Assembly (NCBI GenBank): GCA_963804165.1
Contig: CAWDPO010000043.1
Location: forward strand, 192,001 to 256,000
Reading direction: 5' to 3'
From: an uncultured delta proteobacterium
GTDB taxonomy: Bacteria > Desulfobacterota > Binatia > UBA9968
Length of the DNA: 64,000 nucleotides
In this document: positions 45,325 through 61,059 of the stretch, in pieces
Layout of the letters: each line of letters starts with the position of its first letter
Position numbering within the stretch: the first letter of the stretch is position 1
Made by a program: the position numbers and the translations under genes
Notes under the pieces: model-generated
The model's input: only the letters and a program-made list of their open reading frames with translations
What the model was told of the DNA's origin: nothing
Databases searched by the model: none

Positions 45325-47695
45325 TTACAAATTCGTCCAGCGCCAATCGCGAATCTCCGGCAAATCATCGCCGTGCTTCGTGATGTATTCCTTGTGCTCG
45401 ATCAGCTTGTCGCGAATCGCTTGCTTGGCGTAGGCCGCGTGATAGCCGAGCTTCGGCACGCGGTCGATCACGTCCGCGACCAGATGAAACCGGTCCATGT
45501 CATTGCGCACGACCATGTCGAACGGCGTCGTCGTCGTGCCCTCTTCTTTGTAGCCGCGCACGTGCAGATTGTTATGATTGGTCCGGCGATACGTCAGGCG
45601 GTGAATCAGCCAGGGATAGCCATGGTAGGCGAAGATAATCGGCTTGTCGGTGGTAAACAGCGCATCGAAATCCTTCGAAGACAAGCCGTGCGGGTGCTCT
45701 TCCGCCGGTTGCAGCGTCATCAGATCGACGACGTTGATGAAGCGAATTTTCAAGTCGGGCATGGTTCGGCGCAGCAGGTGCACCGCCGCGAGCGTTTCCA
45801 ATGTCGGAATATCGCCGGCGCAGGCCATCACTACGTCGGGCTCCCCGTCCTTGTCGTTGCTCGCCCACTCCCAAATGCCGATACCGGCGGTGCAATGCTT
45901 GATCGCGGCTTCCATGTCTAGATATTGCAATGCCGGCTGTTTTCCCGCGACGATGATGTTGATGAAGTTGCGGCTGCGCAAACAGTGATCGGTGACTGAA
46001 AGCAAGCAGTTTGCATCGGGCGGCAGATAGACGCGGATGATGTCCGCTTTCTTGTTGCAGGCATGATCGATGAAGCCGGGATCCTGGTGCGAAAAGCCGT
46101 TGTGGTCTTGGCGCCAGACATGGGAGGACAGCAGATAATTGAGCGAGGCGATGGGCGCGCGCCAGGGAATTTCCTTGCTCGTGGTCTTGAGCCATTTGGC
46201 GTGCTGGTTGAACATCGAGTCGACGATGTGAATGAAGGCTTCGTAGGAGGAAAACAGGCCATGGCGTGCCGGTGAGCAGATAGCCTTCGAGCCAGCCCTG
46301 ACAGGTATGCTCGCTCAAAATTTCCATCACCCGCCCGTGCGGCGATAGCGTGATATCGTCCGGCGGCCGTATCGGCGAGCCAGGTTTTGTCGGTCACTTC
46401 GAACAGCGCATCGAGGCGGTTGGAGCTGGTTTCGTCGGGACCGAAGACGCGGAAATTTCGCGCGTCCAGGTTGAGCTTCATCACGTCGCGGAGCAGTTTG
46501 CCCATGACGCGCGTCGCTTCGGCAAATACTACGCCGGGTTCTTTAACCTCCACCGCGTAGGCGCGAAAGTCGGGCATGCGCAAATCTTGAAGCAACAGAC
46601 CGCCGTTGGCTACGGGATTGGCGCCCATGCGGCGCTGCGCCCTTGGGCGCCAACGTCTTTGCAGCTCGCGGCACCAGCGCGCCGCCTTGTCGAAAAGCTC
46701 TTCGGGCCTGTAACTTTTCATCCAGTCTTCGAGAATCTTGAGATGCTCCGCCGATTCCATGTTCCCCATCGGTACTTGATGCGAGCGCCAGGTTCCTTCA
46801 ATCTTCTCGCCGTCGACTTCCTTCGGGCCCGGTCCAACCTTTGGGCGTGCGCAGGACGATCATCGGCCAGCGCGGCCGCTGAGCGATGCCGTTGTTGCGC
46901 GCGTCTGTCGTGGATCGTCTTGATCTCGCCGATGACCGTATCGAGCGTCGCCGCCATCGCCTCGTGCATCGGATCGGCTCGTGCGCCTTCGACGAAATAA
47001 GGATGATAGCCGTAGCCGCTGAAACAGGCTCTCCAGCTCTTCTTTACTGATCCGCGCCAGCACCGTCGGATTGGCGATCTTGTAGCCGTTTAAATGCAGG
47101 ATCGGCAGTACCGCGCCGTCACTCGCCGGGTTGAGAAACTTATTCGAGTGCCACGCCGTCGCCAGCGGGCCGGTCTCCGCTTCGCCGTCGCCGATGACGC
47201 AGGCGACGACCAGGTCGGGGTTGTCGAAGGCCGCGCCGTAGGCATGGGAGAGCGCGTAGCCCAACTCTCCGCCTTCATGGATCGATCCGGGAGTCTCCGG
47301 CGCGACGTGGCTCGGAATCCCTCCGGGAAAAGAGAATTGTTTGAAGAGATTTCTGATGCCTTCTTCGTCCTGCGAGATATTGGGATAGACTTCGCTATAG
47401 GTTCCTTCCAGATAGACGTTGGCGACGATGCCCGGGCCGCCGTGGCCGGGACCGGCGATGTAGATCATGTTCAAATCGTTTTTGCCGATCACGCGGTTTA
47501 GGTGGACGTAAATAAAGTTCAATCCCGGCGTCGTGCCCCAGTGGCCGAGCAGCCGCGGTTTGATATGCGCGGTTTCAGCGGTTCTTTGAGCAGCGGATTA
47601 TCGAGCAAATAAATTTGTCCGACGGAGAGATAATTGGCGGCGCGCCAATAAGCGTCGAGGACTGGTGATTTCGTTTTCCGATAAACGTTCGCCAT
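45325..47695 (-). pseudogene. xfp: Xylulose-5-P/fructose-6-P phosphoketolase with multiple frameshifts
   Basis: [86 protein letters not shown] spread over at least five frame segments. Confidence 0.92.
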
Positions 47696-47714: not shown

Positions 47715-48947
47715 GTATAACCCGCCGCGGATTGAAACAAACTTGTCGTCTCGCGCGCAATGATCGCTTCTTCATCGCTCGGGATCACATAGACGTGAAT
47801 GCCGCGTCCACAGCCGAGAAATAAGACTTTCCGCGCCGACTGCGATGGAATTATTCTTGTCCTGATCCAGCCGCAAGCCGCACCACTCCATGCCCGCGCA
47901 GATTTTTCCCGGACCACCGGCGCGTTCTCGCCGATACCGCCGCTGAAGACCACGGCTCGGCGCCGCCGAGCGCGCCAGGTAGCGCCCAAATATTTGCGCG
48001 CCCGATAGCAGAACACATCGACGGCCAGCCGTGCCCGCGCATCGGAATCGTAAGCGGAGATCAGTTCGCGCATGTCGTTGGAGCGCCCGGACAAGCCGAG
48101 CAGGCCGGAACGATGGTTGAGCCAGCGTTCGACCTCGGCCGCACTCGACCTTTTCCTTGCGCGCAAGATAGTTCACCAGCGCCGGATCGAGATCCCCGGA
48201 GCGCGTGCCCATCACCAAACCTTCGAGCGGCGTGAAGCCCATCGATGTGTCCACCGAGCGGCCGGCGCGGATCGCACACGCGGAACAGCCATTGCCCAGA
48301 TGCAGCGTCACGATATCGATCTCGCGCCCGGCCGGCCAGTCAGCTCGCCATAGCGCAGCAGCGAATATCGATGCGCCATACCGTGAAAGCCGTAGCGGCG
48401 AATATGGCGTGTTTTTTGGCAAGCTCGACAGTCGATGGCATAGGTCGCCGCGGTCGCGGAGATCGTGTGCGTGAAAAGCGGTATCGAATACCGCCGCCAT
48501 CGGCAGTGCCGGACCGAAAATTTTCCGCGCCGCGTGAATGCCGTCTACCGCCGCCGGATTATGCAGTGGCGCCAAGTCGTTCAACGATTCGATGCGCGCG
48601 AGCACATCATCGTTGATTGCCACCGCCGAGGTGAAAAGATCTCCGCCGTGTACCACGCGGTGGCCGACGGCGTCGACCTGCCGCTCGCCGGCGCCACTGG
48701 ACGTCGTCAAACCAAGGCGCTCGATGATCGCGCGCACTGCGATTTCGTGGTCCGCTGCGGCGAGCTTTTCTTCCGGTGGTGAAATCTTATCCCCGGCTTT
48801 CAGTTTGAAGACGGCAGCATCGCCGAGACGGTCGATCAGTCCCACCACGAGCTTGCGGTCTCGAATCGTCGCGGCTGAATCCTCGGCAGCTTCTATGAGT
48901 TGAAACTTCACCGAAGAGCTGCCGCAGTTCAGCACCAGAACATTCAT
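47715..48947 (-). pseudogene. ackA: Acetate kinase with multiple frameshifts
   Basis: [73 protein letters not shown]; 3' end uncertain. Confidence 0.92.
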
Positions 48948-49085: not shown

Positions 49086-49102
49086 AGCAATCGATATGCC
49101 AC
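49086..49102 (-). promoter_or_regulatory. sigma54 promoter for ackA-xfp-CBS
   Basis: Minus strand GTGGCATATCGATTGCT. Confidence 0.7.
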
Positions 49103-50321: not shown

Positions 50322-53300
50322 CTAGCGCCTGCGGCGCGGCGACCGACCGCGCGCACTCGGTTTTTTCGACGGAGGTTTCTGCTCAGCTCTTTTTGGCCTC
50401 GAATTATTCGCCGCCGTGCAACTTCCCGGTCGAATCGTATCCGCCAGCCGGCGCAATCGTTGCGCGATCGCCGTATCCGCCTTCACTCGGCTTGTCCCGA
50501 TTCGAGTCGCAGCCTTGGCATCGAATAAAAGGGCCAGCAGACACAACTGCTGAGTGACGGAGTCGAGATCCTTGGGCACGATTTGAATATGGGCGAGCGC
50601 CTCCGTGTAGTGTCGGCTCACTTCCTCGAAGGCTTTCTCGCTTTTCCCGTCCTCGTTAGCCAATGCTCCGGTACACAACGATTCAACTAGATACGCGTCT
50701 GCTGCCATGACCGCGTTCCAAACATCGGGTGACTGCTTGAATCTGTCGTTCGCTTTGCCGGCGCACACAGCGCACTCCTGAACGCCTTCTTTATAAATTC
50801 CTTCGAGTGCCCTCAGCGCCAACCCGTTGAGCGCCGGATAAGGATCGAAGCGCTCGTCGGTCGCTTTCCCCGACCCGATCTCGTAGGCCTCGATGCTCGC
50901 CTGCACCGCGTCGTTGAACTCTTTCACCGTGGCTGCGGCGGTGTCGCCGGCGATGATCCTGTTTGCAAAGATTGCCGCTTTGCGTTTGTATGCGCTGCCG
51001 ATAACGGCTGCGCGCTCGACGTTCGCCGACAAACCCGCTTTGTCCGTTTTTGCAGAGCCGTCATCCGCCGGCCCGGCGGCAATGTGATTTAGATTTTTCA
51101 GGCGCGCGAGCGCGCGCTCGGCCAATTCGGCATCTCCGCTGCTTTCCGCAAGCCGAGATTCCAAGTTAGCCAATTGCTCGATGGCGGCGATCGGCACACG
51201 GCCGACTTTGTCCTCCGCGGCGATAGCAAATCTATAAAACTTGCGCGCATCTTCAAAATGTTCGACGCCGAGCAACGCGTAGGTCTGCGCCAGCTCGAAA
51301 TTCACGGCGGGTTTGCCCAGCCAATTTCTTGGACAACGGCTGAGAAGCTGTTTAAGTTCTGCGCCGATGCTCTTGGCGTCCGAGGGGGTCATCGACTCGC
51401 GGCGCCGGTAGATGTGAATGCGCAGCCGTTCGATTTGATCGATCAATTCTTCTGGCGCGATAAATCTACCGACATCCTCGCCACCGCCGTTGGACTCGGC
51501 GCGCGGATCCACGCGCCATCCCGGATCGCCGTAGGCTTGATAGGCGCCCCACGTGATGCTGCTGCCGTGTTTGCGGTAAGTCTCTCTGCGAGCTTCGAAT
51601 ATGGCGTCGCCGAACTGCAATTTGTCCTGCAGAATGCAGCGATAAAAAGTATCGGCGAAGCTGAGCGCAGCATCGTCGTCGACCGCCCATCCTGCCGCGA
51701 TCACACAGCGCACGCCGATCTCGATCAACTCGCGCGAGATGCTGTAAGCCAAACGATTGTATGCGATGGGCGTAGGATTCGCTTTTGCCAGATGACAGCA
51801 ATTGAGAAATACCAGGTCCGGAACGATCTCCATTTGGCCGATCTCGGCGGCTCCCAGCAACAGTCCATCGGACAGCACGACGCCGGTGCGAGTCACGCCG
51901 TCTGCCGCCGGCTGTTCGAAAAGGCCGTGCGCCGCGATGTGCACGATACGATACGGTTTTTGGTAAAGCGGCGTGATCACGTCTAGCGCCTTGCGCCCTT
52001 GGCCGATCGATGACTCGACCTGATAACCGTGGCGATTCAAGGCTTCCACGACCGCGCCCGCTTCTTCTTCCGCGCCGGCCAACGAATCCAATCCCTCGGT
52101 GGGTTGTCGATTCGGAAACGGAAACATCTTGAAGAAGTTTTCCGTTGACGGGTTCCCGATCACGTAGGCGAGAGGCTGCAGCGACTGGCGCACTTGGCGC
52201 CGAAAACGGCTGGATGAGAGTTGCCTGATCATGTGCGCGCCCACGGCGAGCGGTTCTTGATCCGCGAGCATCAGCTCCCAAGGCAAATTAGCGGTGTAGC
52301 CGTCGAGCACGAGCACGATGCGGTCGAGCTGGCGCGCCGCGTCTTTGAAATCCTGCGGCACCATCAGTTGAAACAGCGTCCGGCAAAACTCCGGTTGATA
52401 GCTCTGCGCACGAATCTGTTGTGCTATCAGCGACTCCACCAAACCGGGCTGGCGCTGCTGTACGATGGTTTCAGCGCGGGCGCGCTGGCCGACGTGCACG
52501 AAGCGCAAGCGCTCGGCGATCTTCGTCGGTTGCTTCGATCGATCCCCTTCGGCTCGCGGCGACTCGTCGACAGTCGGCTGGGACGAACCGTCTTCATCGC
52601 CGTCGGCGTTCGTGATGATCATGCGCGGCCAGTGGGCAACAGCCCGGCTATCGTCGAGTCGTTGCCGAACACCGATGCCTCGATCCAGTTCCTCGGGCAC
52701 TTCCAGGCGCACGCCGAGCTGACGGATGTCCGCGTTCATCTCTGCCGCAAAATCCGTCAATGAGTGCATCGCCGAGATTGCGCTATCGAGATACAACTCG
52801 ACGATTTCCAATGAGGATATCCTTAAAGAGCCGGCAGTCGCCTCGTTAAATTTAAGATTGCCCTCGACGACGCCGCGGATCAGCGCTTCAATGGAGGCAG
52901 CGACTGTAAGGTTTGCCGTGGAATTATAGCCCAATATCAGAGTGGACAGAGCGATTTCACCGCTGCGCCCGCCGCTGCAGTCGGCGTACTGGAGAAGGTA
53001 GCGAACGGCGCCTGTCCGCACCGCTTCGGTCAGCGTATTCGCTGACAGCGTGCCATCGTATTGCCCTAACCCCGTGACCACTGCCCCGCAAAAACTCCCG
53101 CGCAACCGCTCGGCGTCGTTGGGCAAGCGCAACACGACCACCGCGGTGCCGACCGGGCCGGCGTAAAGGCCCATGTTGTAGCGCTCGCTCAAGGCGCGGT
53201 CGACCACATCACGATCGATAATCGATTCCGCGCCGGAAATGGCGTCCTGTTCATAGTGGCCGACCATGATCGGCTGGGTCACGAAACGAAGATCCATCGC

Positions 53301-56291
53301 CTTGACCTTGACCCTCAGCGTCTCCACTTGCCGCGTTTTCATACGTTTGCGCTTCGATTTACCCATGAGCGGATGAGCGGCCTCTTCGGGCAACGGATAG
53401 CGCGGCGGCCCGGCCTCGTAGGACATCGGCTTCGCCGCTCTCACGTCCCGCACTGCGGGCGGCTTATCCGTCAAAACTCCAGTCACGCCGCTGCGAAGCA
53501 ATTCGGTCACGGCGCTGAAATATTCATCGGTGTTCGCCAGATCGCCGTGCACCGCCGGCATGTAGTAGCGCCTGCCGATTCCGCCGATCGCACCCGACTT
53601 CCACGTGACCGTGCCATCCCCTTCGGCGGTACCGATCATTTTCCAGCGGCCCCCAACTTTCTCGATACCGCAAGCCGTAACGGGAGCGCAGCCATGCACG
53701 TAAATGGTTTTTTCTTTGTGCGATTCCGGCAAAGCCGGCGTCAAACCATCGCGATCCCACAGCCATTTGCCTTGATTGAGCGCTGCATCGCTCGGCACCG
53801 CTGCGACCTTGTCGCCAAACCAGAAATCTTTCATGTCCTGTTTAAACGCTGTCCATCGGCCAGCGCTAAAATAATCATCGAACTGCGCGCCGCCGATGTC
53901 TTGAAAGCCCGGTTTCGGTAACAGCTGCAATGCACCGCGAAATTCACCGATGATATCGAGAATGGTTTGCAAGTCTTGCGCGATATCCAGGCGTGCGAGA
54001 GTGCGCAGCGTGTCGGATTTGCCGATCAGCGCTTCGACCATCGAGTGTGCGCCCTGGTTCGGCGTGCCGAGCATGATGAAGCGCGCGCCGTCGCGAGCCA
54101 TCAGCTGATCCCAGAGCTGAGGATTTTTGTGAACCAGCGAGCGCACGACCAAACCGCCCATGCTATGAGCGAGAATGCGAATCGGGCGCTCGGGATCCTT
54201 CGTAGCGTCGGCCAATCCGCGTAAAAACTTCTCTAGTTGTTCGGCTAGAATATCGAGAGGCAAGCGCCAGTCGTAAGGAAACCGTTCGACCCGGTGCGAG
54301 TCCATGAGATGCTCGCACAAATCGCCGTACGACATATCGAAGAGCTTTTCCGCGGCGATGCCGTCGCCCGCCGCTGATCCTGTGGCCACAGTCCAGCGCA
54401 GATCGTCGAGTCCGCCGGCCGCGATATCGGGAACGTCGAACCAGACACGGTCACTGTTATTTTTCCACAGATGGGAGCCCATGATTCCCGGCAACACGAC
54501 AACGACGGGCAGTGTGGCTTCCGCCGCCTCGCCGCCGCGGCTTCGGCGCAGAGCTGCGGTCCGGCTTATCTCTTCGGCCAGACTGGGTTCTTGCAAATCG
54601 CCGGGCAAGGTTTTGAAAAGCTCGAGGCGCTCGACCGCGTCCGAAAGCAGCCATTCGCGCAGCGCCGCGCGCGTGCTGTCATTCTGAAAATAGTGAAAAT
54701 GCGACGTCGCCGGTCCTTGATCGAGCAGCGCGCGCCCGCCGGCCTGACGTGCAATGCCGGCATACATCGAATCGGTATCGACGACCAGATCGTTGTCGAT
54801 GCCGCTGAAAAGAGCATAGTCCGTGAACAACACCCCCAACCTTTTGAGCAGGCCGCCACCTTCGATGTCACCGGCGATAACGGCCATTTGCGTGGACTCT
54901 TGCGGCTCGGCAACGGCTAAAAAACGCGCCATCGGCGAATCCGGCAGCATCGCCTCAATACCGGGAATGAGCTTGGCGTCCGTGCGGTTCTTGGCGATCT
55001 CAAGGACGATGCGCTTGAACGCGTAGTAAAGCGGGTTGCCGTAAAGATAGGGCACGCGACCGATCAACGTGAGTAAAGCCGAGAGGAAGATGTCGAGATT
55101 TCCCGAAGCGAGCAGCGTGCCGCGCGCCGGGCAGCCCACACGCACGTAACGTTGCATGACGAATTGCTTTTCCTGCAGCAGAGCGCGCAAATCGCGTAGT
55201 CTTGCTCGGAGTTCCGCGTGGGCATTGGCGACTTCGCTCTTTATGCGTTCCCGCTCCTCTTCGGAAACATCGCCGGGCTCCGGCAGATCGCTCTTGAACC
55301 CCTCGATCAGGTCGTCGCTAAAATTCTCCAGGCACAACAGATCGCCGATCAATCCGCCGCGCGAATGCGCGACCAGATTAATTTGCGCACCTTTGGGCAA
55401 CTTGGCCGCGAGCTCGATGGCGTTCTGAATCGGGCTCTCCGACAAGGTAGGATGTTCGAAGCCGTAGATCCGATCGTCGAACTTGGTTTCCAGCGCCTGC
55501 CAATCGCCTGAGGAACTTTTTTGCAAGTCGCCGAAGCTTCCGCACGTGGACGAACCGGTACCGTGAATAAAAACCAGCAGCGGCCCTTCCCTGGCATCCT
55601 TCGCCAGCGCCTCGTCGTCGATATTCACCAGATCGACCGCTTGTCCCGTGCCGCGCGGCCAGCGATATAGCCCCGGCTTTCGGTCGAGGCGATTTTCGAT
55701 CGCCCACATGAGCGCCTTGGTGCCGAGCCATGTGACACCCAGTCCGGCGTATCCCCGGATTTTTTCCTCCGCCTTCTCGCCCAGCCACTCTGCTGCTTTG
55801 CGTTTGGCCGCATCGATGATCGGATCGGCGACATCGCCCACCGTCAAGGTAAACACACGTGCAACAAGGTCACTGACCGCGTCGCCGATGATACCGCGGC
55901 TCTCCTCGGCGCGCTCATGCAGCGCATCGAGCTTTAACGTCCCGTCCGCTTCCACCGCCTCGGGATTGACCCGCTTCAGCGACTCTCGAAGCTTCGCCGC
56001 GCTGGTGATAACGGTCACGCCATCGGACATTTCCAAGACGACGACTTCGTCGTCGGCCGCTTGGATCGTTTTCTCGATAACGCCTTCGGCGCTTGAACGG
56101 GACCGCCGTCCGACTTCGAAAGCCGAGTTAATTTTCAAGTAGCCGTCTGGAAAAAACTCATCTGGCCTGGCGTCACCGGACGCGCGCGTCGCCCGACGCA
56201 AAGCATTGGGCAAAGCAGGATTGGCGATCGGAGTACCGGTAAGTTTAAGCGAAATGCTAACAGTCATCTGCCTCTCCTTAGGTATCGGCAT
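50322..56291 (-). CDS. Giant CHAT (caspase-like) polyprotein: two alpha/beta-hydrolase domains, middle domain, CHAT, helical TPR-like tail
   Basis: FIHGTGSS..AHSRGG; LPGIMGSHL..PYDWR..AHSMGG..LGTPNQG..GDGTV..HGDL; CHAT LPWELM, VHIAAHG, VFLNCC, AGWAVDD, TWGAYQAYGDP. Start may be ATG 56267. Confidence 0.88.
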   Translation of the reverse strand: MPIPKERQMTVSISLKLTGTPIANPALPNALRRATRASGDARPDEFFPDGYLKINSAFEVGRRSRSSAEGVIEKTIQAADDEVVVLEMSDGVTVITSAAKLRESLKRVNPEAVEADGTLKLDALHERAEESRGIIGDAVSDLVARVFTLTVGDVADPIIDAAKRKAAEWLGEKAEEKIRGYAGLGVTWLGTKALMWAIENRLDRKPGLYRWPRGTGQAVDLVNIDDEALAKDAREGPLLVFIHGTGSSTCGSFGDLQKSSSGDWQALETKFDDRIYGFEHPTLSESPIQNAIELAAKLPKGAQINLVAHSRGGLIGDLLCLENFSDDLIEGFKSDLPEPGDVSEEERERIKSEVANAHAELRARLRDLRALLQEKQFVMQRYVRVGCPARGTLLASGNLDIFLSALLTLIGRVPYLYGNPLYYAFKRIVLEIAKNRTDAKLIPGIEAMLPDSPMARFLAVAEPQESTQMAVIAGDIEGGGLLKRLGVLFTDYALFSGIDNDLVVDTDSMYAGIARQAGGRALLDQGPATSHFHYFQNDSTRAALREWLLSDAVERLELFKTLPGDLQEPSLAEEISRTAALRRSRGGEAAEATLPVVVVLPGIMGSHLWKNNSDRVWFDVPDIAAGGLDDLRWTVATGSAAGDGIAAEKLFDMSYGDLCEHLMDSHRVERFPYDWRLPLDILAEQLEKFLRGLADATKDPERPIRILAHSMGGLVVRSLVHKNPQLWDQLMARDGARFIMLGTPNQGAHSMVEALIGKSDTLRTLARLDIAQDLQTILDIIGEFRGALQLLPKPGFQDIGGAQFDDYFSAGRWTAFKQDMKDFWFGDKVAAVPSDAALNQGKWLWDRDGLTPALPESHKEKTIYVHGCAPVTACGIEKVGGRWKMIGTAEGDGTVTWKSGAIGGIGRRYYMPAVHGDLANTDEYFSAVTELLRSGVTGVLTDKPPAVRDVRAAKPMSYEAGPPRYPLPEEAAHPLMGKSKRKRMKTRQVETLRVKVKAMDLRFVTQPIMVGHYEQDAISGAESIIDRDVVDRALSERYNMGLYAGPVGTAVVVLRLPNDAERLRGSFCGAVVTGLGQYDGTLSANTLTEAVRTGAVRYLLQYADCSGGRSGEIALSTLILGYNSTANLTVAASIEALIRGVVEGNLKFNEATAGSLRISSLEIVELYLDSAISAMHSLTDFAAEMNADIRQLGVRLEVPEELDRGIGVRQRLDDSRAVAHWPRMIITNADGDEDGSSQPTVDESPRAEGDRSKQPTKIAERLRFVHVGQRARAETIVQQRQPGLVESLIAQQIRAQSYQPEFCRTLFQLMVPQDFKDAARQLDRIVLVLDGYTANLPWELMLADQEPLAVGAHMIRQLSSSRFRRQVRQSLQPLAYVIGNPSTENFFKMFPFPNRQPTEGLDSLAGAEEEAGAVVEALNRHGYQVESSIGQGRKALDVITPLYQKPYRIVHIAAHGLFEQPAADGVTRTGVVLSDGLLLGAAEIGQMEIVPDLVFLNCCHLAKANPTPIAYNRLAYSISRELIEIGVRCVIAAGWAVDDDAALSFADTFYRCILQDKLQFGDAIFEARRETYRKHGSSITWGAYQAYGDPGWRVDPRAESNGGGEDVGRFIAPEELIDQIERLRIHIYRRRESMTPSDAKSIGAELKQLLSRCPRNWLGKPAVNFELAQTYALLGVEHFEDARKFYRFAIAAEDKVGRVPIAAIEQLANLESRLAESSGDAELAERALARLKNLNHIAAGPADDGSAKTDKAGLSANVERAAVIGSAYKRKAAIFANRIIAGDTAAATVKEFNDAVQASIEAYEIGSGKATDERFDPYPALNGLALRALEGIYKEGVQECAVCAGKANDRFKQSPDVWNAVMAADAYLVESLCTGALANEDGKSEKAFEEVSRHYTEALAHIQIVPKDLDSVTQQLCLLALLFDAKAATRIGTSRVKADTAIAQRLRRLADTIRPGSCTAANNSRPKRAEQKPPSKKPSARGRSPRRRR

Positions 56292-56480: not shown

Positions 56481-56497
56481 AGCAATACGAATGCCAA
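56481..56497 (-). promoter_or_regulatory. sigma54 promoter upstream of the CHAT polyprotein gene
   Basis: Minus strand TTGGCATTCGTATTGCT, close to the TGGCAC-N5-TTGC consensus, about 190 nt before the start. Confidence 0.65.
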
Positions 56498-56675: not shown

Positions 56676-57026
56676 TCAAAGCGGTAAGAAGCTGACCCGA
56701 TTCACCCATTCTTCAGCCTCGGTTGCTACCCAAATCAACCGCAGATCATCTACCACAGTCGCAACCGCAAGGTGCTGGGGAACAATCAGCAATCCCGGGG
56801 AAGTAGTTCCAGAAATAAATTCCGAGAAATGCCACGGCATGGTCTTGTGATCGTGTGTTACAAGTACCCGTCCCTCGCGAGCGGCCATTTCTAATACTTC
56901 TCGATCGTCTAATGACTTCAGACTGGCAGCGGCTGCCGTCTGGAAATCTATAGACGGTTCACGCCGCACTGTTGCCAACACAATTATCTGGTTCAGGTCG
57001 GCATCCGCCTGAAACCGAATTTTCAT
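56676..57026 (-). CDS. DUF5615 family PIN-like toxin
   Basis: RFQADADL, DDREVLEMAAREGRVLVTHD, SPGLLIV. Confidence 0.88.
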   Translation of the reverse strand: MKIRFQADADLNQIIVLATVRREPSIDFQTAAAASLKSLDDREVLEMAAREGRVLVTHDHKTMPWHFSEFISGTTSPGLLIVPQHLAVATVVDDLRLIWVATEAEEWVNRVSFLPL

Positions 57027-57340
57027 GGGTGTGAGATTTGAATCGTTCGGCGTGCGTCGGCTAGTTTCACATAGAACATCGGATCAGCGTCGCGGGCGGC
57101 TTGCCTCGCGATTTCATAATCCGCTTGAGCTTGAACGAGGTAGGCATCGATATCCGCCCGGTTGGATAGATAGAAAGCGACAGCGCCGTAAACTTGTTCC
57201 AATGTGAGCGCCGGAAAGGACTGTGCGATACTTTCAGCAGACTGGCCACTGAGAAAAGCGTAGACGACCGAGTCTAGCGAAACGCGAGTGTTGGAGATCC
57301 AATATCCTCCGTCTCGCTTTTCAACATATTCTTTGTTCAT
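57023..57340 (-). CDS. DUF433 family antitoxin
   Basis: ISNTRVSLDSVV..GQSAESIAQSFPALTLEQVYGAVAFY; ATGA overlap with the toxin gene. Confidence 0.9.
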   Translation of the reverse strand: MNKEYVEKRDGGYWISNTRVSLDSVVYAFLSGQSAESIAQSFPALTLEQVYGAVAFYLSNRADIDAYLVQAQADYEIARQAARDADPMFYVKLADARRTIQISHP

Positions 57341-57551
57341 AGGTGTACGTCTCTCCCAACCAACGCCCAATTATTAACCATGGCGCACACCAGATCAAGT
57401 CGCCGAGTGCATGCCATATGAGTCTTACTTAACGCGAGCAAAAATCCATCTAACCCTTTGGCTTGAACAGAGTTCAACTATATTAGATTGTGACGGCAGT
57501 GGATTCTTCAAATAAGGATTCGCAAAACTCTTGACGTCGATTGATCTGACC

Positions 57552-58613
57552 ATGAAACACTCACCGCCGTGGCTGATTTTCCTATGTCTATTGATCGCTT
57601 TCAGTTCGCTGCTGGTGCACGCACAAGACCCACGTCCCCGGCCGGAAGTGGAAACTCAGGAGCCGCATCTGCAGAACCTTAAGCAGTTAACTTCTGGTGG
57701 ACAGAACGCCGAAGCATACTTTTCGTATGACGGCACGAAAATCATCTTCCAATCCACTCGTCCGCCTTACCAGTGCGATCAGATCTTTAGCATGAACGTG
57801 GACGGCAGCGACGTGAAACTTTTAAACAGCGGCAAAGGCCGTACGACCTGTGGGTTCTTTTTCCCTGACGGCAAACGGGTCATTTATGCCTCGACCCACG
57901 TGGCAGGCGATGCCTGTCCGCCGGCGCCGGATCGAAGCCAGGGTTACGTCTGGCCGACTTATCCCTCGTATGAAATCTTCAGCGCCAATGTCGACGGCTC
58001 CGGATTGAAGCGCTTGACCCAGAACCCCGGGTACGACGCCGAGGGAACCATTGCGCCGGATGGGAAGAAAATCGTTTTCACCTCGATGCGCTCCGGCGAT
58101 CTCGACATCTACACGATGAACGCCGACGGCAGCGGCACAAAGAGACTTACAAGCGAAAAAGGCTATGACGGCGGCCCATTCTTCTCGTGGGACGGGAAAA
58201 CCATCGTCTATCGAGCATACCATCCTAAAACCAAGGACGAAGTAAAGGAGTACGAAACGCTCCTCAAGCAAAATCTGATCAAACCGACGCGCGCGGAAAT
58301 TTTTCTCATGTCGGCCGACGGCTCGAACAAGCGGCAACTCACCGACAACGGTGCGGCCAACTGGGCGCCGTTTTTACATCCCAACAATCGGCAGATAATT
58401 TTCTCCTCCAACCTGCACGATCCCGAACGGCGCAGTTTTTCACTTTACATGATTAACCTCGATGGCACCGGTCTGGTGCGCGTTACCTACGGCGCGCGTT
58501 TCGATAGCTTTCCGATGTTCTCGCGGGACGGCAAGAAACTCGTCTTCGCGTCGACGAGAGCTGAGAAAGAGGCGCGAGAGTTCAATATCTTTGTCGCTGA
58601 TTGGGCGCCGTAG
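57552..58613 (+). CDS. TolB-like PD40 beta-propeller exported protein
   Basis: Signal peptide; GQNAEAYFS.DG, GYDAE, GYDGGPFFS, NWAPF, FDSFPMFS repeats. Confidence 0.88.
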   Translation: MKHSPPWLIFLCLLIAFSSLLVHAQDPRPRPEVETQEPHLQNLKQLTSGGQNAEAYFSYDGTKIIFQSTRPPYQCDQIFSMNVDGSDVKLLNSGKGRTTCGFFFPDGKRVIYASTHVAGDACPPAPDRSQGYVWPTYPSYEIFSANVDGSGLKRLTQNPGYDAEGTIAPDGKKIVFTSMRSGDLDIYTMNADGSGTKRLTSEKGYDGGPFFSWDGKTIVYRAYHPKTKDEVKEYETLLKQNLIKPTRAEIFLMSADGSNKRQLTDNGAANWAPFLHPNNRQIIFSSNLHDPERRSFSLYMINLDGTGLVRVTYGARFDSFPMFSRDGKKLVFASTRAEKEAREFNIFVADWAP

Positions 58614-58757
58614 AAGCGCATCACTATTGCTGCATTTCGTTCAAGAACCGGCGCAACGTTAGGTGGTGACATCCACCGCCTTTTTGAGTAGAGTCCTAGA
58701 GTCGGCCAAGCCCCATAATACTAATCGCGGGCGCGTCGACAATCGGAGGTAACTCTC

Positions 58758-60035
58758 TTGGAAACTGCGGCGCGCGAATTTCAGATCATGGTGAAAACGA
58801 TCGGGGCGATATGCAACCTCGATTGTCACTACTGCTATTACTTAGAGAAAGAGAATCTTTACCCCAAGGGCTCCAATTTTCGCCTCGACGACGAAACCCT
58901 CGAACGTTACGTCCAGCAGCATATCCGGGCGACCCCCGGCGAGATCGTCAGTTTTTCCTGGCACGGCGGCGAACCGACGTTGCTCGGCGTCGATTTTTTT
59001 CGAAAAGCGGTGGCGCTGCAGGAGAAGCATTTGCCGGACGACAAAAAGATCATCAACGGCATTCAAACCAACGGCACCACCATTGATGACGAATGGTGCG
59101 ATTTTCTCGCCAAGGAGAATTTCTACATCGGCCTCAGTCTCGACGGGCCGCGCGAACTGCACGATCACTATCGCGTCACCAAGGGACAGAAAACCACCCA
59201 CAAACAAGTCGTGCAGGCGTTCCAGATGCTCCGGCGCGCCAAAGTGCACGTCGATCTCCTCTGCGTCGTCCACGACGTCAACGTCAAGTATCCCACGCAG
59301 GTATATCGCTACTTCAAAGAAATCGGCGGGCAGTACTTACAATTCCTTCCACTGGTCGAGAAAACCGGCGAGCCGAACAACCCGGTGCACCAGCGCTCGG
59401 TGCCGGCGGCGGCTTACGGAAAATTTCTCAATACTATTTTCGACGAATGGATGCGCAACGACATAGGGAAGATTTTTATTCAACTTTTTGACGAGTCCGT
59501 GCGGCCGTTTCTCGGCATGGAGCACGCGCTCTGTATTTACCGTGAGACCTGCGGCGACGTGCCGGTGGTCGAACACAACGGCGATTTCTACTCCTGCGAT
59601 CACTATGTGTTGCCGGAATACAAGATCGGCAATATTCACGACCGGCCGCTGGCGGAGATGGTCGAGGACCCGAAACAACGCGAGTTCGGCCAGAAGAAGT
59701 GGACGAGCCTGCCCAAGTACTGCCGTGAGTGCGAAGTGCTCAGCATGTGCAACGGTGGCTGCCCCAAAGACCGCATCGTCAAAACCCCGGACGGCGAAGA
59801 AGGCCTAAATTATCTTTGCGCCGGATTAAAGGGTTTCTTCACGCACAGCAAGCCGTATTTTCAAAAATTCGCCGAGTTGGTCGGCGCCGGTGAGCCGGCG
59901 GAAAAGCTGATGGAAATCGTCCGCGCCGCCGACGCCAAGACCTCGGTTCGCCAGGCCGGTCGCAACGACCCTTGCCCCTGCGGCAGCGGCAAAAAATACA
60001 AACGCTGCTGCGGCGGCGCCCGTCCCGGAGTCTAG
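58758..60035 (+). CDS. Anaerobic sulfatase-maturating radical SAM enzyme (SPASM) with SEC-C tail
   Basis: CNLDCHYCYY, WHGGEP, QTNG, GDFYSCDHYV, CRECEVLSMCNGGCPK, GRNDPCPCGSGKKYKRCC. Confidence 0.92.
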   Translation: METAAREFQIMVKTIGAICNLDCHYCYYLEKENLYPKGSNFRLDDETLERYVQQHIRATPGEIVSFSWHGGEPTLLGVDFFRKAVALQEKHLPDDKKIINGIQTNGTTIDDEWCDFLAKENFYIGLSLDGPRELHDHYRVTKGQKTTHKQVVQAFQMLRRAKVHVDLLCVVHDVNVKYPTQVYRYFKEIGGQYLQFLPLVEKTGEPNNPVHQRSVPAAAYGKFLNTIFDEWMRNDIGKIFIQLFDESVRPFLGMEHALCIYRETCGDVPVVEHNGDFYSCDHYVLPEYKIGNIHDRPLAEMVEDPKQREFGQKKWTSLPKYCRECEVLSMCNGGCPKDRIVKTPDGEEGLNYLCAGLKGFFTHSKPYFQKFAELVGAGEPAEKLMEIVRAADAKTSVRQAGRNDPCPCGSGKKYKRCCGGARPGV

Positions 60036-60165
60036 GGCAAATCGTGCTCGTTTGACGTGTTCGTGAGCGGAAAACACGCATCACGATCACGCCCACGCGT
60101 CTTACCCTTGCGTCCCTTGCGTTCGCTGCGGTAAATCTCTTTCGTCTTAATCTACCGAGGAGCAA

Positions 60166-61059
60166 ATGATGACCCTGTACGACGACATGATGGAAGGCGT
60201 CATCGACGTCCACTGCCACATCGACTTCGAATTTTCCGCCAAGGAGCGTAAGCGTGAACCGGAGTTTCTCTGGTTTCCCAAGGCTGAGGCGATGGGCATG
60301 CGCGGCGTCGTGCTGAAATCACACTGGTGGCCGACCACCAACGTCGTTCCGTATATTCTCGCTTCGGTAGAGACCAAAGTCGCGGTCTGGTCGAGCGTCG
60401 CGCTCAACATCACCGCCGGCGGACCGAATCCTTGCATCGTCGAAGCCTGCGCCGAGCTCGGCGGCAGGATGATTTTTCTACCGACCTGGAGCGCGCGCAA
60501 CGACGTGGAGCGCAAGGGCTTCAGCAGCCGAATCAAATCTTACTACAGGAGCCACGCCAAGCTGGAGAACCCGAATTACTATTTCCTTGATGACAAGGGA
60601 AAACTGATTCCGCGCGGATATGAAATCATCGAAGCGTGCAAGTCCCACGATTTGACGCTCGGCATGGGTCACGTCTCTTGGCAGGAATCTCTAGCCTTCA
60701 TCGAAGCGGCGCGCGACATGGGCTACAGCCACAGAATCGTCGTCAACCACGTGCAGAGCCACATGATCGCCATGCCGGTCGACGCGATGAAGCGCGCCGC
60801 GGAAATGGGTGCGTTTCTCGAAGCGTGCTGGAATGCGCTGGCTCCCGGCCGGATGGATTCGCCGGATCTCGTCAAACAGTTTCGCGAAGTGGGTCTCAGA
60901 CAGATTATCGCGAGCACGGACTATTTCCGCCCCTACAGTCCAAATCCCGCTGAACTTTTTCGCATGTATCTCGGCATGCTGCACGAAGGCGGCCTGAGCA
61001 AAGGCGAAGTGAATCAAGTCGCGGCGATCAATCCGGCGCGTCTGATGGGCATGGCGTGA
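60166..61059 (+). CDS. DUF6282-like amidohydrolase-fold metalloprotein
   Basis: IDVHCH, GMRGVVLKSH, GGPNP, MGHVS, VNH, STD, NPARLMG. Confidence 0.8.
   Translation: MMTLYDDMMEGVIDVHCHIDFEFSAKERKREPEFLWFPKAEAMGMRGVVLKSHWWPTTNVVPYILASVETKVAVWSSVALNITAGGPNPCIVEACAELGGRMIFLPTWSARNDVERKGFSSRIKSYYRSHAKLENPNYYFLDDKGKLIPRGYEIIEACKSHDLTLGMGHVSWQESLAFIEAARDMGYSHRIVVNHVQSHMIAMPVDAMKRAAEMGAFLEACWNALAPGRMDSPDLVKQFREVGLRQIIASTDYFRPYSPNPAELFRMYLGMLHEGGLSKGEVNQVAAINPARLMGMA

Follow-up and report, generated by a model that had tools for sequence, protein, structure and literature searches.

We describe here a giant gene on the minus strand (positions 50322-56291) of a 64,000-nucleotide stretch of DNA from an uncultured bacterium of the Binatia, hereafter the window. 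The gene is a typical, intact member of a large and widespread family of proteins in which two lipase-type alpha/beta hydrolases, a macro-fold domain, a CHAT protease and a helical TPR-S tail are fused into one polypeptide, and which are usually accompanied by a small, separately encoded Peptidase_C14 caspase; in the genome of the window this partner has moved elsewhere. On balance we think it probable, by a modest measure, that the family consists of latent multi-enzyme proteins of the cytoplasm which, together with the caspase, constitute a protease-triggered, membrane-attacking two-protease cascade. No characterised example of such a fusion is known to us, and the literature search returned no paper on it, the supplements of Evans et al. 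aside. An earlier note on this DNA had read the gene as a single-gene proteolytic signalling or cell-death system; the domains, their conservation and the candidate sites in the linkers stood up to analysis, whereas the single gene, the toxin-antitoxin (TA) pair, the sigma54 promoter and the defence link invoked there turned out to be unsupported or incomplete.

The open reading frame (ORF) extends over 1,989 codons without interruption, and its G+C content (0.55-0.61) is similar to that of the flanking DNA. The true start is probably M9, as judged from the sequence, because this methionine is invariant in 31 full-length homologues and its ATG is preceded, 6 nt upstream, by AAGGAG; the product would then have 1,981 amino acids. 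Pfam matches and two AlphaFold models divide the protein into six parts, a variable N-terminal segment, a DUF7379 hydrolase, an LCAT/PGAP1-like hydrolase, a macro-fold domain, a CHAT domain and a TPR-S tail, which are laid out with their linkers as follows:

50322..56291, minus strand: whole ORF, 1,989 codons, with the probable start M9 at 56267.
55587..56267, minus strand: N-terminal segment (residues 9-235), beta-rich and helical, packed on hydrolase 1, with R36, R65 and R132-G133 in low-confidence loops.
54612..55586, minus strand: hydrolase 1, DUF7379 (residues 236-560), with S310 (in AHSRGG), D501 and H531.
54510..54611, minus strand: linker 1 (residues 561-594), carrying R585 (codon 54537-54539).
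53457..54509, minus strand: hydrolase 2, LCAT/PGAP1-like (residues 595-945), with S710 (in AHSMGG), D892 (in GDGTV) and H915 (in HGDL).
53325..53456, minus strand: linker 2 (residues 946-989), carrying R948 (codon 53448-53450).
52602..53324, minus strand: macro-fold middle domain (residues 990-1230), with near-invariant GHY..D and G-L-G motifs.
51507..52505, minus strand: CHAT protease (residues 1263-1595), with H1455-G1456 and C1498-C1499.
50322..51506, minus strand: helical tail (residues 1596-1989), with the TPR-S match at residues 1679-1826 (50814-51257) and, beyond it, a basic C-terminus rich in Pro and Arg.

The frame and every motif quoted in the earlier note were found in the translation, namely AHSRGG (308-313), AHSMGG (708-713), GDGTV (891-895) and HGDL (915-918) of the hydrolases, VGHYEQDAISGAE (1010-1022) and VVTGLG (1071-1076) of the middle domain, HIAAHG (1451-1456) and FLNCC (1495-1499) of the CHAT domain, GSAYKRKA (1765-1772) and YPALN (1818-1822) of the tail, and the linker-type motifs RRSR (62-65 and 582-585) and ESRG (130-133). 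No hydrophobic, signal-peptide-like stretch can be read at the N-terminus, in keeping with the absence of an evident signal peptide remarked upon before. In Pfam, hydrolase 1 matched DUF7379 (PF24096; E 9.4e-32, 110.9 bits against a cut-off of 33), and hydrolase 2 matched LCAT (E 5.4e-8, 32.9 bits against a cut-off of 21), a match that spans only positions 88-173 of the 392 in the profile; the same stretch weakly matched PGAP1 (19.8 bits, below its cut-off of 24.3), DUF676 and Abhydrolase_6. Two alpha/beta hydrolases with intact nucleophile elbows, the second of them LCAT/PGAP1-like, are therefore present as claimed. The CHAT match (PF12770) covers the entire profile at residues 1302-1589 (E 3.3e-31, 109.3 bits against a cut-off of 24). 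The resemblance of the tail to TPR-S (PF20308) was upheld barely, by a marginal match (E 3e-6, 28.2 bits against a cut-off of 27.6); most homologues carry a precomputed PF20308 annotation, and members of a distant subfamily reach E 3.4e-14. Among NCBIfam models HetF alone was matched (E 0.0072, 14.6 bits against a cut-off of 1200).

The two AlphaFold models, of residues 1-592 and 985-1600, were built on 65-sequence alignments from related loci and were compared with known structures by VIA fold comparison, from which all Z scores given here derive, and by Foldseek as a second fold search; all domain assignments of the earlier note hold. The first model (ma7b7ba9a1317; predicted local distance difference test score, pLDDT, 86.8; predicted template modelling score, pTM, 0.90) shows an N-terminal beta/alpha segment packed on an alpha/beta hydrolase, with loops of low confidence in the blocks 61-70 (pLDDT 67) and 131-140 (pLDDT 53) and at 571-592. 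The second (m5cf3165f48dc; pLDDT 86.4, pTM 0.87) contains two domains. The best folds for hydrolase 1 were the lipase BlEst2 (Z 18.8, root mean square deviation (rmsd) 4.2, 242 residues aligned) and the phospholipase PlaB (Z 18.6, rmsd 3.1, 245 aligned), with further matches to CALB, PPT, PGAP1, the type VI secretion system lipase effector Tle4 (Z 14.6) and polyhydroxyalkanoate/polyhydroxybutyrate (PHA/PHB) depolymerases (Z 14.5-15.7), and Foldseek pointed to family I.5 lipases (E 7.6e-7) as well as to those of family I.2.

The likeness of hydrolase 1 to secreted lipases, and to Tle4 and PlaB in particular, could be taken to mean that the protein is an exported toxin aimed at competitors, for example a secretion-system effector which the proteases process for delivery. 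We regard this as very improbable, since no signal peptide is visible, half of the protein consists of sensor and protease domains of a cytoplasmic type, and no secretion-system, immunity or chaperone gene recurs among 136 neighbouring ORFs (of 179 eligible ORFs of 100-800 amino acids, taken from longest-ORF calls at up to two per side in 40 loci).

The CHAT domain, which has the caspase/hemoglobinase fold, matched separase best (Z 22.1, rmsd 3.9, 294 residues aligned), followed by Csx29 (Z 20.4), DdvA (Z 19.1) and gingipain R (Z 18.5-18.8). Residues 989-1193 (5-209 of the model) matched the N-terminal domains of M17 aminopeptidases (8pz0, Z 15.3, rmsd 3.1, 181 aligned; PepA, 1gyt, Z 15.2; 172-181 residues) and the macro domain of macroH2A1.1 (Z 14.9), and Foldseek added YmdB (1spv; E 4.9e-5, TMt 0.63) and AF1521, so that the guess of a macro-like M17 N-terminus proved right at the level of the three-layer fold. 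The near-invariant motifs of this domain are GHY..D, G-L-G, N-S and E-x-Y-x-D, of which G-L-G presumably resembles that of M17. Unlike in the M17 leucine aminopeptidases, no M17 catalytic domain follows the macro-fold, and the Pfam model of their N-domain (PF02789, Peptidase_M17_N, of the macro-like clan) matches 3 of 65 relatives, weakly, the best at E 0.0053; the window protein itself matches neither PF02789 nor PF01661 at E<=1. A cluster in the ESM Atlas bears PF02789 at a score of 0.88 and is a lead only. A sequence search of the PDB with residues 960-1300 and with the N-terminal 235 residues returned nothing at E<=10, and the N-terminal ~200 residues gave no fold match, both searches of the 592-residue model being filled by its hydrolase domain. 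We propose that the N-terminal segment acts as a zymogen or inhibitory segment, and the helical tail as a sensor or regulatory part.

The family is large. A word-indexed protein search, in which 7,999 candidates were scored, gave 905 proteins at E<=0.001, and among the best 120 matches listed 115 were proteins of 1,928-2,111 amino acids with an identical Pfam set; where named at all, members are annotated merely as 'CHAT domain-containing protein'. At least 521 loci were found in a scan of one genome per species, and the profile of residues 1-592 matched 3,447 clusters at 50% identity with E<=0.001 (1,095 with E<=1e-30). Members occur in Burkholderiales, Rhodocyclales including Accumulibacter, Thiotrichales, Pseudomonas, Cyanobium, Desulfobacterales, Gemmatimonadaceae, Devosia and Binatia, and a distant subfamily, ~33% identical, has the same architecture in all five proteins checked. 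The spread is patchy: matches were obtained in 34 of 401 genomes of a sample of the order Burkholderiales (a tally that takes in one unpublished genome, G031), in 12 of 400 of a class sample (again with one unpublished genome, G649) and, across the full middle-plus-CHAT region, in 2 of the 201 genomes sampled from the class to which the window belongs.

Conservation of the catalytic residues among homologues, which the earlier note had itself singled out as decisive for its reading, is high: over 65 aligned full-length homologues, each is kept in 60-65. For hydrolase 1, S310 is kept in 64/65 (with one Cys) and D501 and H531 in 65/65; for hydrolase 2, S710 is kept in 60/65 (four cyanobacterial loci and L056 have Gly instead), D892 in 65/65 and H915 in 64/65; and in the CHAT protease, whose His/Cys dyad had been described as intact, H1455, C1498 and C1499 are each kept in 65/65. 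On average the homologues are identical to the window protein at 50-56% of positions in the four enzymatic or macro domains, 38% in the N-terminal segment and 31% in the tail, the least conserved folded region. Two Cyanobium loci in which the nucleophile Ser of hydrolase 2 is replaced by Gly also encode, just downstream of the giant gene, a second caspase fusion protein of 670-695 amino acids (L019:16199-18211 and L058:16303-18390).

The linkers that carry the RRSR- and ESRG-type motifs are poorly conserved (16-33% identical around the arginines, and 16-21% in two of them), and single arginines within them are nearly invariant among the 65 homologues. Three of the positions, listed here by their codons, come with that of R948 in linker 2:

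56097..56099, minus strand: R65, candidate cleavage site 1.
55896..55898, minus strand: R132, candidate cleavage site 2, an R-G motif.
54537-54539, minus strand: R585, candidate cleavage site 3.

R65 is present in 64/65 homologues, in the context F-[DE]-[LV]-[SG]-x-x-A-R followed by S, G, D or A, and its flanks have a mean column conservation (the share of the commonest residue) of 0.43. The R132 loop holds the R-G dipeptide in about 62/65, R585 is kept in 63/65 within a linker that averages 21% identity, and R948, whose flanks are weak, shows about 94% conservation; R36 is likewise a conserved single arginine in a variable loop of low confidence. Judging from this pattern, the linker arginines could be processing sites. 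The positions would split the protein into the pieces 1-65, 66-132, 133-585, 586-948 and 949-end.

The partner emerged from clustering of the ORFs around 80 related loci, in which a protein of 265-290 amino acids is encoded directly upstream of the giant gene on the same strand. It is a Peptidase_C14 caspase in all five examples scanned (E 6e-24 to 4e-27). Adjacency was scored by tblastn in the 75 loci with at least 900 bp of upstream sequence, the five with too little being excluded (one of these, L035, has a partial caspase at its edge), and a stand-alone caspase lies directly upstream in 53 of the 75: 52 by tblastn, plus L036, where a break in the ORF had shifted the start used for scoring. 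Loci with the adjacent caspase include those of Roseateles albus (L023) and Variovorax (L031 and L033). Three of six distant-subfamily loci and all 8 metagenome loci with upstream room have the caspase upstream as well. An alignment of 32 caspases shows invariant His-Gly and D-x-C-H-S-G catalytic motifs, together with an invariant C-x-x-D motif and several other invariant acidic residues, which we take to resemble the S1 pocket of the Arg/Lys-specific metacaspases.

The genome of the window contains one C14 gene, unlinked and on another contig, which encodes 270 amino acids (G000:C46:88305-89114, minus strand) and is likely to be the partner of the window protein. Its orthologues, 79-87% identical, are present in the genomes of the Binatia relatives L006 and L039, whose giant genes are likewise without an adjacent caspase, and in two genomes of the same genus with a divergent member of the family; with the caspases which adjoin family genes in other lineages (L102, L103 and L126) it shares 45-48% identity. 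All five tested genomes without an adjacent caspase encode a homologue elsewhere. Furthermore, in the sample of 201 genomes of the class a C14 match occurs in 6 of 6 genomes with a family CHAT match, compared with 9 of 195 others, and within the genus of the window both genes are present in three genomes and neither in two. As the genomes are few and related, this co-occurrence is suggestive only. The window genome also encodes further, shorter CHAT proteins on contigs C37, C3 and C20, with frames of 773 and 740 amino acids and one CHAT gene split in two on C3.

The fused architecture comes apart in nature. Macro-CHAT-tail proteins of ~1,005 amino acids exist alone, starting near residue ~991, and proteins of ~520-606 amino acids consisting of the N-terminal segment and DUF7379 are found on long contigs, so that two of the pieces bounded by the arginines have natural protein counterparts. 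A lipase-less short form (L145), in whose 21-kb locus there is no lipase region, still has the caspase upstream, and for this reason we consider the caspase and the macro-CHAT-TPR-S part to be the core of the system. Other variants include a 1,491-amino-acid DUF7379-CHAT-TPR-S protein without the LCAT-like hydrolase, whose caspase gene is convergent (L126, in genome G544), and a 1,355-amino-acid protein without a TPR-S match, with the caspase upstream (L125, in G563). Stand-alone relatives in the 400-genome class sample amount to two small matches only. One of them is a stand-alone DUF7379 hydrolase of 442 amino acids with no caspase nearby (L143:5192-8789, G824); a 759-amino-acid gene without a Pfam family overlaps it upstream, and the two look like another DUF7379 module.

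The closest described parallel to the pairing of caspase and hydrolase is that of Lysobacter capsici, in which LcCaspase cuts an adjacent lipase-like alpha/beta-hydrolase zymogen, LcHydrolase, at two sites with a glycine after the arginine (Arg73 and Arg117), and toxicity of LcHydrolase required junctions placed exactly at the scissile bonds, as given in the preprint's account (Evans et al. 2025, bioRxiv 10.1101/2025.11.14.688446). In the family described here a caspase-family gene is likewise paired with a lipase-like alpha/beta hydrolase, in most of the relatives scored, and the nearest structural relatives of the latter are again lipases. Two conserved arginines, R65 and R132-G, precede the hydrolase core as do Arg73 and Arg117, a likeness of motif in which at least one arginine is followed by Gly, and the models place them in or beside a short helix and loop, much as is described for LcHydrolase. 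Compared by published description, the hydrolase of the family is about twice as long (N-terminal segment and DUF7379, ~560 amino acids, versus ~295) and, unlike LcHydrolase, it shares its chain with a second hydrolase, a macro-fold domain, a CHAT protease of its own and a TPR-S tail, while in the genome of the window the caspase is unlinked. No small LcHydrolase-like protein was among the 150 matches listed when the profile of residues 1-592 was searched against a representative library, all of them being family members or fragments.

A second parallel is the locus of Haliangium, of type III-B CRISPR and cyclic oligonucleotide-based antiphage signalling system (CBASS) character, where, by the description in the preprint, SAVED-CHAT cleaves and activates the caspase PCaspase (Steens et al. 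2023, bioRxiv 10.1101/2023.06.23.546230). Both arrangements have a CHAT protease fused to a sensor and a separate small caspase, which makes an initiator-executioner logic possible, and the CHAT domain of the window protein matches the SAVED-CHAT filament structure 8tl0 with Z 15.4. The differences are that no SAVED family is among the Pfam matches and that the neighbourhoods show no recurrent cyclase or CRISPR genes; the candidate sensors are instead the TPR-S and macro-fold domains, with the lipases fused as candidate effectors. With Csx29 (the TPR-CHAT protein of the type III-E Craspase) and separase the protein shares the CHAT fold, the His/Cys dyad and helical repeats on the protease chain; it differs from them in that its repeats are C-terminal and belong to the TPR-S type, that a Cas7-11 or Csx30 partner is lacking, and that the substrate is proposed to be in cis.

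Because the family combines parts of the LcCaspase/LcHydrolase and SAVED-CHAT/PCaspase systems, we propose that its members work as a cascade. The variable TPR-S tail would sense a trigger, possibly helped by the macro-fold domain, and would thereby switch on the CHAT protease, which with the partner caspase would form a two-protease cascade cutting after R65, R132-G, R585 and R948 in exposed loops. These cuts, whichever of the two proteases makes each of them, would strip off the inhibitory N-terminal segment and free both lipase-type hydrolases, which would then attack membrane lipids, killing or arresting the cell. The purpose would most plausibly be abortive anti-phage defence, or else another form of regulated cell death. 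The family would thus be a fused variant of a known protease-effector logic, and if the model is true, one common family unites a CHAT-to-caspase cascade and protease-licensed hydrolase zymogens in one polypeptide, with membrane lipids as the target. The conserved single arginines offer precise candidate cut sites open to test, and the natural lipase-less and hydrolase-only forms are ready-made controls.

A simpler arrangement would be a self-contained polypeptide in which the CHAT protease alone cuts the linkers in cis and releases the lipases, the caspase being an optional amplifier or having a separate function. The candidate cut sites are indeed on the same chain as the CHAT domain, its dyad is invariant, and the fold relatives of the domain include separase and gingipain R, which are Arg-directed proteases; moreover, the window and 22 of the 75 related loci have no caspase next to the giant gene. 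We nevertheless consider this arrangement rather unlikely, and the single-gene view of the earlier note was not sustained, given that the caspase is directly upstream in most loci, that homologues were found elsewhere in every genome tested without an adjacent one, that the window genome has its own unlinked homologue, and that the lipase-less short form retains the caspase. In the published two-gene module, as described, it is also the caspase that performs the R-G cutting (bioRxiv 10.1101/2025.11.14.688446).

A more elaborate version of the cascade has three tiers, in which the macro domain either receives a small nucleotide-derived signal or serves as an oligomerisation switch, the CHAT protease is the initiator and activates the C14 caspase encoded in trans, and the caspase, as executioner, cuts the R-G sites of the same polypeptide, leaving two active phospholipases. 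Taken jointly, these propositions make for a quite unlikely whole. Were they to hold, the family would represent a bacterial 'apoptosome plus executioner plus membrane-lysis' pathway, unlinked and under sigma54 control in Binatia, whose ancient core is the caspase with macro-CHAT-TPR-S and to which the lipases were added as one of several outputs. Thoeris systems, as far as the cited reports describe them, offer likenesses to the family, with a caspase-family death effector in type IV and, in type II, a macro-type domain that may be the receptor for an ADP-ribose-derived signal (10.1101/2024.10.24.620036, PMC11204291, 10.1101/2024.01.03.573942). In contrast to Thoeris, no TIR gene recurs at the loci of the family (the TIR model matches 2 of the 136 neighbouring ORFs) and, on the evidence of the model, the macro-fold appears to resemble the M17 N-domain more closely than it does ligand-binding macro domains.

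Several observations weigh against the two-protease cascade that we favour. The literature search found no experiment on any family member. The caspase is adjacent neither in the window locus itself, where the upstream genes are DUF433/DUF5615, nor in 22 of the 75 related loci, and the orphan caspase of the window genome is nearer to the caspases of the distant subfamily (45-48% identity) than to those beside genes of the window's own subfamily (31-39%), so that it may originally have belonged to another family member. A complex prediction of the N-terminal 592 residues with this orphan caspase, run without controls, gave ipSAE values of 0.01 and 0.00 against a mark of 0.32 and counts neither for nor against the cascade. 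Hydrolase 2 is not always catalytic, since its nucleophile Ser is missing in 5 of 65 homologues, and the enzymatic domains are 50-56% identical across phyla, unlike many fast-evolving immune genes. As regards defence, no model of PADLOC-DB v2.0.0 fits the protein (the best being BovA, E 0.034, 11.1 bits), and a minority of the 136 neighbouring ORFs match PADLOC models: mad2 in five cases, mad3, mad8 and TIR in two each, and Cas6, IetA, TRIP13, PtuB, AriA and a ThsA-like gene in one each. The immediate neighbours are mostly housekeeping genes, and the recurrent partners are the caspase and, in Accumulibacter, a TPR-S protein (three cases by Pfam). The link to defence neighbourhoods suggested by the earlier note is therefore weak, neither borne out nor clearly contradicted, with no PADLOC model and few neighbour matches.

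Some of these points would suit a regulated housekeeping or developmental enzyme, engaged for instance in stress-controlled remodelling of lipids or storage polymers, with the proteases as maturation factors. PHA/PHB depolymerases are among the fold neighbours of hydrolase 1, free-living bacteria of soil and water, Accumulibacter among them, have the gene as a single chromosomal copy, a sigma54 promoter is possible, and besides the prevalence of housekeeping neighbours and the strong conservation of the enzymatic domains, the synteny with Peptidase S51 and acetate kinase genes is shared between the window and L006, the closest relative. Set against this, the distribution is patchy across phyla, within the window's class and within the Burkholderiales sample alike, the tail is variable, the combination of caspase, CHAT and TPR-S sensor is that of known death or defence modules, and some loci do adjoin Cas6, IetA, TIR, PtuB, AriA or ThsA-like genes, which leaves a housekeeping role, in our judgement, fairly improbable.

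The TA pair and the sigma54-type promoter that the earlier note had adduced in favour of a regulated stress or defence role are both present in the window, although the pair is absent in L006 and the element recurs in just one of the 75 related loci. Their positions, with that of a second such element, are:

56676-57026 (DUF5615) and 57023-57370 (DUF433), minus strand: overlapping TA-like pair, directly upstream of the giant gene.
56481-56496, minus strand: sigma54-like -24/-12 element TGGCATTCGTATTGCT, ~190 nt upstream of the ORF, with one mismatch to TGGCAC-N5-TTGCW, a consensus match only.
49086-49101, minus strand: another sigma54-like element, TGGCATATCGATTGCT, again with one mismatch, ~140 nt upstream of the gene for acetate kinase.

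In L006 the S51 and acetate kinase genes follow the giant gene as they do in the window, while the gene upstream is a glycine-reductase gene; since the downstream genes are shared and the upstream gene differs, the TA pair appears to be incidental. A sigma54-like element was found in the Binatia relative L039, at -225, and not in L006, and the window as a whole has no excess of consensus matches with up to two mismatches (30, against 27.2 expected from shuffles). A search of sequencing runs listed no RNA run as carrying the gene, all word shares being <=0.12.

Around the related loci, a TPR-S/MAP3K_TRAF_bd protein of ~656 amino acids is encoded directly downstream of the giant gene at L067:10178-12148 and at L014, L015, L036, L063 and L073; in these loci, of Accumulibacter and Propionivibrio, it could be a second sensor component. 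Large PAS-GGDEF-EAL proteins, of cyclic di-GMP turnover, are encoded 2-6 kb upstream of the caspase and giant gene at several loci of the Rhodocyclales type (L043, L049, L074, L077 and L081) and also beside the lipase-less short form (L145:3796-6903), which may reflect synteny or a signalling link. As partners we set aside PAS-GGDEF-EAL proteins, RlpA-like DPBB/SPOR proteins, acyl-CoA dehydrogenase, ATP-binding cassette ATPase and short-chain dehydrogenase/reductase, which occur in 4-8 loci each and which we read as local synteny.

In the window itself genes for Peptidase S51, for acetate kinase and, broken up into three ORFs, for a phosphoketolase lie downstream of the giant gene, and upstream of it are the TA-like pair of DUF433 and DUF5615, a PD40 propeller, a radical SAM/SPASM protein and DUF6282. 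The acetate kinase ORF (47772-48947) matches positions 2-256 only of the 392 in its profile. The phosphoketolase (XFP; 45325-47522, minus strand) is made up of ORFs at 46860-47522 (XFP_N 56-225), 45918-46769 (XFP_N 311-363 and XFP 2-49) and 45325-46215 (XFP 98-177 and XFP_C), and would be either a pseudogene or the product of frameshifts in the assembly. On the plus strand, positions 57531-61059 encode the PD40 beta-propeller, the radical SAM/SPASM protein with a C-terminal SEC-C and the DUF6282/amidohydrolase-like protein, which may together form a peptide-modification cluster.

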